From assembly GCA_002713205.1 (NCBI GenBank), contig PAVW01000006.1:104657-125967 (forward strand): a stretch of DNA of 21,311 nt, written 5' to 3'. The notes beneath the pieces were generated by a model. It ran no database searches. It saw only the letters and a list, made by a program, of their open reading frames with translations, and was not told the DNA's origin. Of this stretch, positions 5,175-18,380 are shown in pieces. Source of the DNA: Nitrososphaerota archaeon. GTDB lineage: Archaea > Thermoproteota > Nitrososphaeria > Nitrososphaerales > UBA57. A program made the position numbers and the translations under genes. Numbering within the stretch: the stretch's first letter is position 1; each line of letters starts with the position of its first letter.

Positions 5175-6011
5175 TTATTTTATATAATCAACTTTAAAAT
5201 ATTTTTCTATATCTATTTGTTCCAAGTTTTTTTGTATGTTAAAAGAGCGTAAATCAATACCTAATTCCTGTGATTTATTATCTATCCAGATTTCTCTAAT
5301 ATTTCTAGCAATAATACTTGCCGAAGCAACTGCTAATTCATTTTCTCCATGAATAGTCTGTTCAAAGATTACATTATTGTAATCGATTTTTTCAAGTTCT
5401 TTGTTTATCTTATCCTTATCAAATTGATCAATAACTACTTTAATCGTCTGTTCTAATTTTGTTTTATCAAGTAACTTGGTGATAACCTCAATGTGTGATT
5501 CAGCTAAAATATGGTTCAATCCTTTTCCACTTTGTTTGTAATGTTTAAATTTATTATTAAAAATTTGTGGGGTTATTTCTATAGTTTCATAATCAATTAA
5601 ATGAATTAGTTTGTTGTAAATTAAACCAATGCGTTGTAGTGACAAACTCTTACTATCCATAACTCCAAAAGAAATAATTTTAGAGCGCAAAGAACCAGGG
5701 ACAGATGCAGCAGCAACAACTAAAGGTCCAAGAGATTCGCCCTTTCCAGATTCATCAGAACCAATAATTAATTGACGGGTAGATGATAAAAGATTATCGA
5801 GATGTTTAAATATAAAAAGTCTAGCAGAAATATTAGTAGATACGATTTTACCGGTGTTATATATAATTATATATCCAGTGTCTTTTTGCAGGCGGTAAAA
5901 TTCATAAGAATTTGTTCTTGGTAAGTTTAATGCGCCATCAGATAGTAATAATTCAACGAATTGTGTAATTTGAGTTTTTTCAATTTGTATTGAAAAAAAC
6001 CCACTAGACAT
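5175..6011 (-). CDS. rnhC: Ribonuclease HIII-like protein (type 2 RNase H with an N-terminal TBP-like domain)
   Basis: The N-terminal segment ends in IIIYNTGKIVSTN (compare RNase HIII YxSGKvlfQG). The catalytic block IGSDESGKGESLGPLVVAAASV, then MDSKSL, and the C-terminal AVASASIIAR match RNase HII/HIII signature regions. Confidence 0.65.
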   Translation of the reverse strand: MSSGFFSIQIEKTQITQFVELLLSDGALNLPRTNSYEFYRLQKDTGYIIIYNTGKIVSTNISARLFIFKHLDNLLSSTRQLIIGSDESGKGESLGPLVVAAASVPGSLRSKIISFGVMDSKSLSLQRIGLIYNKLIHLIDYETIEITPQIFNNKFKHYKQSGKGLNHILAESHIEVITKLLDKTKLEQTIKVVIDQFDKDKINKELEKIDYNNVIFEQTIHGENELAVASASIIARNIREIWIDNKSQELGIDLRSFNIQKNLEQIDIEKYFKVDYIK

Positions 6012-6076
6012 ATAATAATGAATTAATCATTGTTTATATAGTGAACTTTTTTTAGGTTTGTTTTTCAATTTTAATT

Positions 6077-6226
6077 GGGCTCGTAGCGCAGTATGATATA
6101 ATATATGCGAAATATGGATCAGCGCGGCAGAACATAGCCGAACCTCCTAGCTGCGGGGCGTCAGCTGCAAAAATCAAAAGAATAGATTTTGGCTAAAGGT
6201 CGTGGGTTCAAATCCCACCGGGCCCG
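6077..6226 (+). tRNA. tRNA-Arg(CCU), 150-nt gene with four predicted introns (D-loop, 30/31, 37/38, 43/44)
   Basis: Acceptor GGGCTCG (6077-6083) pairs with CGGGCCC (6219-6225); discriminator is G6226. T-arm is GTGGG-TTCAAAT-CCCAC (6202-6218). D-stem is GCGC (6086-6089)/GCGC (6122-6125). Removing 6131-6142, 6150-6162 and 6169-6196 gives anticodon stem GCAGC/GCTGC, loop CTCCTAA and variable loop AGGTC, which is exactly the 17 nt required. Each excised segment is flanked by a 4-bp helix with 3-nt bulges. The D-loop intron is about 6094-6115, with boundaries uncertain. Confidence 0.65.
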
Positions 6227-6240
6227 CTCAATTATATAAT

Positions 6241-6942
6241 CTAGATTTTCTGATTATGATAATACTTAATCAGGGTTTCAGATTCTAAAAATATAAATTT
6301 ATTTTGTTCGGCGATTTTTTTACAGTCTTCTACATTTAGTGAGTCAAAAGTACGACCATCTAACATTTCACACATAATTACAACAGGGGTTAATTCTGCA
6401 AGGTTTGTAAGAAAAAGAGATAGTTCTGTATGCCCTTGTCGTGATTTTATAAGACCTTTGGTGCCAATTAACAATTGTAAATGTCCAGGAGATTCAAAAG
6501 TTGAATAAAAAATATTTTTTAAATTATTGTTAGTCGACCAATTATTACATAATTTTGTTAAAGATATTATAGTATTAGATTTCCCTAGATCAGTTACACT
6601 ACCTAATTTCCTTTGGTTAAAGGTAATTGAATGAGTGGATCTATTGTTAACAGAAACATCAGTATTAATTATATTAGACAGAGAAGAATAACTATCATTA
6701 GCACTATCCAATAATTGCCACATATAAGGCAAGTCAAGTATTAATCCAATTTCATTAGGAATGGCAACACAAAGTAATCCGCCACCTAATTCACGCATTA
6801 TTTGGATATTAGAAGGAGTGGCAAAATTTCCGGCGAGAATTATATCAACCTCATTCTCACGTGATTCATCATCATGTAACAAAATAAAATTTCCTGTACG
6901 AAATTGAGCAATAATAGATTCCATATCATCAGTGTCTTTCAT
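6241..6942 (-). CDS. ribB: 3,4-dihydroxy-2-butanone 4-phosphate synthase (riboflavin biosynthesis)
   Basis: FRTGNFILLHDDESRENEVDIILAG...GGGLLCVAIP matches the DHBP synthase signature (D-x-RENE-x-D ... GG-x-C). The size fits archaeal RibB. Confidence 0.7.
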   Translation of the reverse strand: MKDTDDMESIIAQFRTGNFILLHDDESRENEVDIILAGNFATPSNIQIMRELGGGLLCVAIPNEIGLILDLPYMWQLLDSANDSYSSLSNIINTDVSVNNRSTHSITFNQRKLGSVTDLGKSNTIISLTKLCNNWSTNNNLKNIFYSTFESPGHLQLLIGTKGLIKSRQGHTELSLFLTNLAELTPVVIMCEMLDGRTFDSLNVEDCKKIAEQNKFIFLESETLIKYYHNQKI

Positions 6943-18119: not shown

Positions 18120-18223
18120 TGGACCGTAGGGGAATCGAACCCCTGACCATACAGGTTATTCATAACATTCCGCATGCGAAGCGGATAATGTAGCAATTGT
18201 TTCTACCGCTGAACTACCGGCCC
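18120..18223 (-). tRNA. tRNA-Ala(CGC) with two non-canonical introns (24/25 and 44/45)
   Basis: The minus strand reads GGGCCGG-TA-GTTC-AGCGGTA-GAA[13 nt, 18188-18200]T-A-TCCGC-TTCGCAT-GCGGA-A[19 nt, 18149-18167]GGTC-AGGGG-TTCGATT-CCCCT-ACGGTCC-A. It has the G3:U70 alanine identity pair, and the anticodon CGC lies at 18176-18178. Both introns are flanked by a 4-bp helix (GTAG/CTAC and GCGG/CTGT) with 3-nt bulges. Confidence 0.75.
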
Positions 18224-18305: not shown

Positions 18306-18380
18306 GCGGTCGTCGTATAGTCTGGTCTAATACGTTAGCTTGCCAAGTTAATAACTCGGGTTCAAATCCCGGCGACCGCA
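18306..18380 (+). tRNA. tRNA-Gly(GCC), intron-less
   Basis: Acceptor GCGGTCG/CGACCGC with A73. D-arm GTAT-AGTCTGGTCTA-ATAC. Anticodon arm TTAGC-TTGCCAA-GTTAA. T-arm TCGGG-TTCAAAT-CCCGG. Confidence 0.9.

Follow-up and report, generated by a model that had tools for sequence, protein, structure and literature searches.

We asked how the locus at positions 6077-6226, on the + strand of a 21,311-nucleotide (nt) stretch of contig PAVW01000006.1 from a Nitrososphaerota archaeon (hereafter the window), could encode a transfer RNA (tRNA), considering that its acceptor, D and T arms span 150 nt. An earlier note, made from the sequence alone, had proposed a tRNA-Arg(CCU) gene with four introns, and this proposal was borne out by an enumeration of the possible introns, by intron-free genes of the same kind, by seven conserved gene variants and by compensatory changes. 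We conclude that the locus is very probably a working tRNA-Arg(CCU) gene of a marine thaumarchaeon (Nitrososphaeria), carrying four short protein-spliced introns at tRNA sites 15/16, 30/31, 37/38 and 43/44.

The gene runs from tRNA position 1 to the discriminator G73, and CCA is not encoded. Its frame consists of a 7-base-pair (bp) acceptor stem with one G.U pair (GGGCTCG 6077-6083 / CGGGCCC 6219-6225, with G73 at 6226), a D stem (GCGC 6086-6089 / GCGC 6122-6125) and a T arm (GTGGG/TTCAAAT/CCCAC, 6202-6218). The predicted exons and introns are as follows.

6077-6091 (+): exon 1, positions 1-15, with the 5' strand of the acceptor stem, U8 A9, the 5' strand of the D stem (GCGC) and A14 G15
6092-6112 (+): intron 1, 21 nt, site 15/16 in the D-loop, bulges AGT 6090-6092 and AAT 6111-6113
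6113-6130 (+): exon 2, positions 16-30, with the remaining D-loop UAUGGAUCA, the 3' strand of the D stem (GCGC), G26 and G27-G30
6131-6142 (+): intron 2, 12 nt, site 30/31 within the anticodon stem, bulges AGA 6129-6131 and AAC 6141-6143
6143-6149 (+): exon 3, 7 nt, positions 31-37, with C31 and C32 U33 C34 C35 U36 A37; anticodon CCU
6150-6162 (+): intron 3, 13 nt, canonical site 37/38, bulges TAG 6148-6150 and TCA 6161-6163
6163-6168 (+): exon 4, 6 nt, positions 38-43, with A38 and GCUGC (3' strand of the anticodon stem)
6169-6196 (+): intron 4, 28 nt, site 43/44, bulges GCA 6167-6169 and AAA 6195-6197
6197-6226 (+): exon 5, positions 44-73, with the variable loop AGGUC, the T arm GUGGG/UUCAAAU/CCCAC, the 3' strand of the acceptor stem and G73

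The introns were compared with the bulge-helix-bulge (BHB) geometry, in which a 4-nt central-helix segment precedes a 3-nt bulge on each strand and cleavage takes place behind the second nucleotide of the bulge; the relaxed forms hBH, HBh' and BHL were accepted. All four introns conform to it, with 3, 4, 3 and 4 of the four central-helix pairs formed in introns 1 to 4, respectively. For introns 2, 3 and 4, the boundaries, helices and hairpin given in the earlier note were confirmed exactly. Intron 2 has the central helix CGGC 6125-6128 / GCCG 6137-6140 and a 5-nt loop instead of an inner helix, while the central helix of intron 3 (CTCC 6144-6147 / GGCG 6157-6160) leaves U33 unpaired in all eight aligned genes. 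Intron 3 has no inner helix, and its first bases, GCTGC, repeat the 3' strand of the anticodon stem. At intron 4 the BHB motif is complete, flanking helices included: the central helix AGCT 6163-6166 / GGCT 6191-6194 is joined by a directly adjacent 6-bp inner hairpin (AAAATC 6170-6175 / GATTTT 6185-6190) and an outer pair C6162-G6198.

For the D-loop intron, the boundaries had to be corrected. Of the two placements suggested previously, 6094-6115 has no BHB motif, and 6093-6111 has one but leaves a 13-nt D-loop; 6092-6112 is the better choice. This cut gives the central helix GCGC 6086-6089 / GCGA 6107-6110, which has three of four pairs in the window and all four in more distant relatives, and an inner helix ATG 6093-6095 / TAT 6104-6106. 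An identical product results from any shift of the intron between +1 and +4 nt. Its position at 15/16 is fixed by comparison, because the 11-nt D-loop left by the cut, AGUAUGGAUCA, matches the AGTATGGATA of relatives that have no D-loop intron.

Splicing the gene in silico gave a 76-nt product whose minimum-free-energy fold is a perfect cloverleaf and which ARAGORN calls tRNA-Arg(CCT), the same call that is returned when the four segments of the earlier note are removed. The cloverleaf is canonical throughout: a 7-bp acceptor stem, a 4-bp D stem, G18 G19, a 5-bp anticodon stem (GCAGC/GCUGC), a 7-nt anticodon loop (CUCCUAA) with U33, a purine at 37 and the anticodon CCU, the variable loop AGGUC, the T loop UUCAAAU and G73. 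The product also carries A20, C35 and G73, which we take to be arginine identity elements. We then enumerated all removals of up to three segments, each of at least 8 nt, between G26 and A44. Only two decompositions restored a canonical anticodon arm, both with three introns and both with the anticodon CCT. Between the two, intron 3 is shifted by one base, and the register used here has the better BHB motifs. No solution with one or two introns between G26 and A44 gave a canonical anticodon arm. As this arm needs three introns and the 32-nt D-loop needs another, the count for the gene is four.

Intron-free tRNA-Arg(CCU) genes of other Nitrososphaeria (L157/L175, L005 and L053) match the spliced product almost base for base. 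The sequence shared by L157 and L175 (GGGCTCGTAGCGCAGTATGGATAGCGCGGCAGCCTCCTAAGCTGTAGGTCG...), like those of L005 and L053, differs from the product in lacking one D-loop base and in having U43 where the product has C43. By sequence, the product is homologous to undisputed intron-free tRNA-Arg(CCU) genes; L157 scores 68.3 bits with the Rfam tRNA model.

The decisive evidence comes from genes found beside RibB homologues. The check proposed in the earlier note, an alignment with orthologous loci, showed that the seven variants other than the window gene all have four introns at the same sites. One of them (L159) is a near-identical strain with a single substitution, in intron 1, and flanking proteins 93-99% identical to those of the window. 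The nearest RibB homologues beyond it are 53-58% identical, and the other six variants come from loci in which RibB is 53-55% identical (P0011, P0003, P0008, P0009 and P0005, where the HSP20-RibB-...-HD-thymidylate kinase neighbourhood is kept). At every one of these loci (L239-L246 and L250-L258), the gap adjoining RibB is occupied by a gene of 144-150 nt in which all four introns have the positions seen in the window. The P0015 loci (L247-L249) were left out, as they have another gene order and no intergenic gap after RibB. The hexamer AGCTGC is duplicated in the window, at 6149-6154 and 6163-6168; this duplication is specific to the window and L159 and is found in none of the more distant related genes.

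In an alignment of the eight distinct sequences, identity to the window is 84-89% for exons and 57-64% for introns. When the cloverleaf is drawn across the introns, 100% of it is paired, against 30-40% in controls with partners shifted by one to three columns, and it includes three compensatory pairs: 27-43 and 28-42 in the anticodon stem and one pair in the T stem. The BHB structure of the precursor is paired in 94.4% of cells, against 28-43% in controls shifted in the same way, and six of its pairs changed on both sides, so that the splice-site helices themselves show compensatory change. The inner helix of intron 4 has three pairs with compensatory changes, and in the helix of intron 2 the pair formed by alignment columns 51 and 63 goes from G-C to G.U to A-U among the related genes. 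Position 27 covaries both with 43 in the mature stem and with its partner in intron 2, which is what a role in both structures would predict. The helix of intron 3 is invariant with one constant mismatch and is thus uninformative for covariation. Run unguided, RNAalifold recovered the acceptor stem and the T arm, the central helix of each of introns 1 and 2, and intron 4's complete BHB motif. What sequence comparison can establish is thus in place: the arrangement of exons and introns, a BHB geometry at each of the four junctions, and conservation with covariation in related genes.

RNAalifold also drew a long-range helix between alignment columns 39-46 and 72-80 (about 6115-6122 and 6147-6155 in the window), which pairs the 3' part of the D-loop and the D stem (UGGAUUAG) with the anticodon and the start of intron 3 (CUAAUUCA). 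This helix is well paired in the more distant genes and partly broken in the window, and it shows no compensatory changes.

We also looked at the gene as a member of a larger family. Sequences were collected by a scan of genomes, one for each species, for the gene's 3' half and by a metagenome scan whose pattern required a specific 3' half, so that the counts are not estimates of prevalence, and they were parsed by an intron-penalised alignment to a mature tRNA template with ambiguity codes. The parsed set comprises at least 110 unique Nitrososphaeria tRNA-Arg(CCU/UCU) sequences, with one wrong parse among them, and its members carry from zero to four introns at recurrent sites: 15/16, 30/31, 37/38, and 43/44 or 45/46. 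Among the matches listed, the raw tally of unique sequences with 0, 1, 2, 3 and 4 introns was 7, 15, 60, 19 and 9. Two corrections apply to this tally: the window gene and L159 were parsed as three-intron genes and belong to the four-intron class, and L083 is not a four-intron gene. The latter was a false parse of a two-intron tRNA-Arg(UCG)-type gene and was left out. Counting the marine relatives with the same gene order together with genes from groundwater, soil and peat metagenomes, there are at least 16 distinct four-intron genes, namely the window gene and at least 15 others. Those outside the marine clade include L044 (from a groundwater thaumarchaeon, 180 nt) and L129, both with the anticodon CCU, and the UCU genes L011, L160, L178, L204, L214 and L219.

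The splice motifs recur across the family. Among the matches listed, at least three of the four central-helix pairs form in 72 of 74 introns at site 15/16, in 38 of 39 at 37/38 and in all 51 at 45/46, while the 45 introns at 30/31 all have four of four. At site 37/38, the intron base facing anticodon position 34 goes from G to A when C34 becomes U34. ARAGORN assigned all spliced family products to tRNA-Arg. For the last intron, the marine clade and L044 use site 43/44 and the central helix AGCT/GGYT, and most soil and peat genes (L011, L050, L086, L096 and L129 among the loci) use site 45/46 and the central helix CTGT/GCAR. Both placements give the same spliced sequence, and the difference could reflect sliding of the intron or independent gain.

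Several observations weigh against the four-intron reading. When the 70-nt stretch from G26 to A44 was shuffled 120 times, a canonical arm could be excised in 112 of the shuffles, and 9 of the 120 also had at least three of four central-helix pairs in every intron, so the signal of the single sequence for four introns is weak. Since excision logic alone is weak evidence, the case rests on the comparison with related genes. In the region of introns 3 and 4, the minimum-free-energy fold of the precursor has an AGCUG/CAGCU pairing in preference to their BHB motifs; it agrees with the helices of introns 1 and 2 and with the hairpin of intron 4, and we regard the single-sequence fold as uninformative either way. 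Intron 3 has the weakest of the four splice motifs, as RNAalifold did not recover its helix from the alignment; this helix has the conserved U33 mismatch and no inner helix to extend it. For intron 1, the alternative register 6093-6111, with the central helix CGCA/TGCG, also pairs in all eight aligned genes. Finally, no EndA or RtcB gene lies within the 21-kb window, and we count the absence of the endonuclease as a further point on this side.

By considering these points together, we weighed other explanations of the locus. The first is a tRNA pseudogene in decay, which has gathered insertions and no longer makes a working tRNA. In its favour, standard scanners do not detect the locus, and the shuffle control shows how easily excisable cloverleaves arise by chance. 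Against it, the four insertions occupy the same positions in loci that share only 53-55% identity in the neighbouring protein, exons are conserved far above introns, and the changes in the anticodon stem, the T stem and the BHB helices are compensatory. A promoter-like block is conserved as well, and every insertion has the BHB geometry of the whole family. We therefore hold the pseudogene explanation to be very improbable.

A second explanation keeps the tRNA and counts only three introns, the first AGCTGC copy being exon and a single 42-nt intron (6155-6196) being removed through the same GGCT/AAA 3' motif. This layout, in which introns 3 and 4 are merged, is the one preferred for the window by the gap-penalised alignment to the mature template, and its BHB motif scores well (4/4 central-helix pairs, with inner and outer helices of 3 and 2, respectively). 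Its product has no A38 and a 6-nt anticodon loop, is called 'tRNA-?(Gly|Arg)(cc)' by ARAGORN, and fails the canonical-arm test of the enumeration. In folds that keep intron 3, GCAGC pairs with the decoy AGCTGC copy and makes a false anticodon stem with a 6-nt loop. The relatives L239, L245, L250 and L044 have no AGCTGC duplication and can be read only with a separate intron of 12-14 nt at 37/38 and, after it, an exon of 6 nt (AGCTGT or AGCTAT). Because the duplication is missing there, the three-intron layout is impossible throughout L239-L246 and L250-L258. We give it an even smaller chance than the pseudogene. The two layouts predict different mature sequences, CUCCUAAGCUGC for four introns (junctions 6149|6163 and 6168|6197) and CUCCUAGCUGCAGG for three.

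Removal of the inserts might also be partial, for example if the D-loop insert stayed in and enlarged the D-loop, or if cutting at 6093-6111 left a D-loop of 13 nt. In agreement with the latter, the shifted helix CGCA/TGCG (columns 11-14 / 30-33) pairs in 8/8 aligned genes, and RNAalifold includes its pair A14-U30. What speaks against this register is only the length of the D-loop and the comparison with relatives that have no D-loop intron: the D-loops of such family members are 10 nt long, exactly the result of the 15/16 cut in their intron-containing relatives (L166 against L181, for example), and no D-loop as long as 13 or 32 nt is, to our knowledge, known from cytoplasmic tRNAs. We consider partial removal the least probable of these three explanations. 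A split or circularly permuted gene is ruled out, as all exons are collinear within 150 nt of one strand, and so are self-splicing group I or II introns, which have a catalytic core of hundreds of nucleotides, while the introns here measure 12-28 nt and match no Rfam intron family.

The reading with four introns suggests how the gene would be expressed. Transcription would start from a BRE/TATA-type promoter (a transcription factor B recognition element followed by a TATA box) about 22-36 nt upstream. In the 150-nt precursor, exon positions 10-13, 25-28, 32-35 and 38-41 would each base-pair with the 3' portion of the intron that follows them. The four BHB motifs use separate exon segments and could form simultaneously, in competition with the D stem and the anticodon stem; all four could coexist because they form a valid nested structure without conflict. 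EndA would then cut each 3-nt bulge, making eight cuts in all, and is presumably of the (alpha-beta)2 broad-specificity type, considering that Thaumarchaeota are reported to have an alpha2-beta2 endonuclease (PMC4090602). An RtcB-type ligase would join the five exons, and CCA would be added after splicing because the gene does not encode it, giving the final 76-nt tRNA. As the outer helix of the 37/38 intron is the anticodon stem, which would form only once introns 2 and 4 are out, our guess is that this intron might be removed last. The splicing machinery is ordinary, and only the number of introns is new.

We also asked how such a gene appears to annotation tools. The expectation that standard scanners would miss it holds for ARAGORN, which made no call on the unspliced locus, and for the Rfam tRNA model, which returned nothing there at its gathering threshold; in a permissive Rfam scan only the T arm was matched, with a score from the tmRNA model. 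Scores of the Rfam tRNA model fall from the 68.3 bits of the intron-free relative to 41.6 for a one-intron gene and 29.9 for a two-intron gene, and both three-intron loci and 7 of the 8 four-intron loci tested are missed. ARAGORN in default mode misses 16 of the 17 unspliced sequences parsed as four-intron. As four-intron loci are under-called, some Nitrososphaeria annotations could be without a tRNA-Arg that is actually present. An archaeal genome usually has about 46 tRNA genes. Five Nitrosopumilales genomes average 43.6 predicted tRNA genes (PMC8450103, Table S7), and this lower count, set against the usual number, would fit undetected multi-intron tRNAs.

The tRNA gene sits in a 229-bp gap between two minus-strand open reading frames (ORFs), with two promoter-like elements upstream of it.

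5175-6011 (-): RNase HII ORF
6033-6040 (+): second TATA-like element, TTTATATA
6041-6055 (+): promoter-like block GTGAACTTTTTTTAG, similar to an archaeal BRE/TATA element, 22-36 nt upstream of the tRNA gene
6241-6942 (-): RibB ORF (3,4-dihydroxy-2-butanone-4-phosphate synthase)

A block of the form GTGAACTTTT(A/T)T(A/T)AG stands at the same upstream distance (22-36 nt) in all loci with the same gene order, and a promoter function of this block is what we infer from the sequence. The other genes of the window are ordinary archaeal chromosomal genes, among them those for CofC, CofD, a plastocyanin-like protein, HMG-CoA reductase, phosphoglycerate kinase and an ABC transporter. The window and L159 have the RNase HII gene placed between the tRNA gene and an ORF of 110 amino acids. 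The more distant loci that share the gene order (L239-L258) have no RNase HII gene there, and their tRNA gene directly adjoins an ORF of 110-112 amino acids. The difference is a local insertion or deletion beside the tRNA gene.

The window holds a second disrupted tRNA gene at 18120-18223 on the minus strand (104 nt), scored at 30.7 bits by the Rfam tRNA model with a 47-nt insert. ARAGORN in intron mode gives Arg(TCG) for it, a call that is probably wrong. The enumeration found no single-intron solution for this locus, and its best two-intron reading, with the arm TCCGC/TTCGCAT/GCGGA, the anticodon CGC and a G3.U70 pair, suggests tRNA-Ala(CGC). The predicted introns lie at about 26/27 (12 nt, with a poor BHB motif) and about 44/45 (19 nt, with 4/4 central-helix pairs). 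On the opposite strand, 83 nt away, is an ordinary intron-free tRNA-Gly(GCC) gene (18306-18380, +; 60.2 bits with the Rfam tRNA model).

The earlier note had given three introns as the archaeal maximum, and the literature agrees: PMC4033280 speaks of 'a maximum of three introns', and PMC8450103 gives the same limit per tRNA gene, its Table S7 listing 16 three-intron genes, all from Thermoproteales. In the same table, the Thaumarchaeota (11 genomes, 498 tRNA genes) have 337, 122, 39 and 0 genes with 0, 1, 2 and 3 introns. We did not find a four-intron archaeal tRNA in our literature search, whose coverage was incomplete, with many subscription papers outside it, so that an earlier description is possible. 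Four introns, which had been expected to be exceptional, are thus unreported in the literature searched, yet common in Nitrososphaeria sequence data. The window gene falls outside the documented class of "two or three introns per gene" by its count and is of the same kind. On balance, we favour the view that four-intron tRNA-Arg(CCU/UCU) genes are a conserved, widespread and unreported feature of Nitrososphaeria beyond the three-intron limit, that they provide a working and perhaps the only decoder of AGG/AGA, and that they might explain some seemingly missing tRNAs in annotations of ammonia-oxidising archaea. The published limit, stated in reviews and in the tRNAscan-SE 2.0 paper, is too low, being exceeded by the window gene and at least 15 other distinct genes. 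Their processing would be demanding, with eight cuts, four ligations and exons of 6 and 7 nt, and the family with zero to four introns offers a natural series for studying splicing order, the gain, loss or shift of introns (43/44 against 45/46) and the tolerance of disruption.

Among known systems, the closest are the three-intron tRNA genes of Thermoproteales (Pyrobaculum, Thermofilum and Caldivirga; Sugahara et al. 2007/2008, as reported in PMC4033280 and PMC8450103). From these accounts, they share with the window gene short BHB or relaxed-BHB introns at canonical and non-canonical sites of one gene, placed close together and breaking stems, with removal by an (alpha-beta)2 EndA and joining by RtcB presumed. 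They have three introns and belong to hyperthermophilic Crenarchaeota, whereas the window gene has four and comes from a mesophilic member of a different phylum, the Nitrososphaeria; moreover, loci that share its gene order keep its layout, which recurs at fixed sites in the Arg-CCU/UCU family. The Thaumarchaeota introns in the tRNAscan-SE 2.0 survey (PMC8450103) are from the same phylum and of the same non-canonical BHB kind, with at most two per gene in that survey against four here.

Split and tri-split tRNAs of Nanoarchaeum equitans and Caldivirga maquilingensis resemble the window gene in that the tRNA body exists in pieces rejoined at BHB motifs. Unlike them, the five exons described here are contiguous and ordered on one strand within one transcript, and no joining of separate transcripts is needed. 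The tRNA-Ile of Cyanidioschyzon merolae also has several BHB-type introns (in the D arm, at 37/38 and at a third site) and goes through several rounds of cutting and joining. It belongs to a eukaryotic nucleus, has three introns, and its splicing order has been shown experimentally, the 37/38 intron being removed after the other two (PMC3728597), while the order that we propose for the window gene is a guess.

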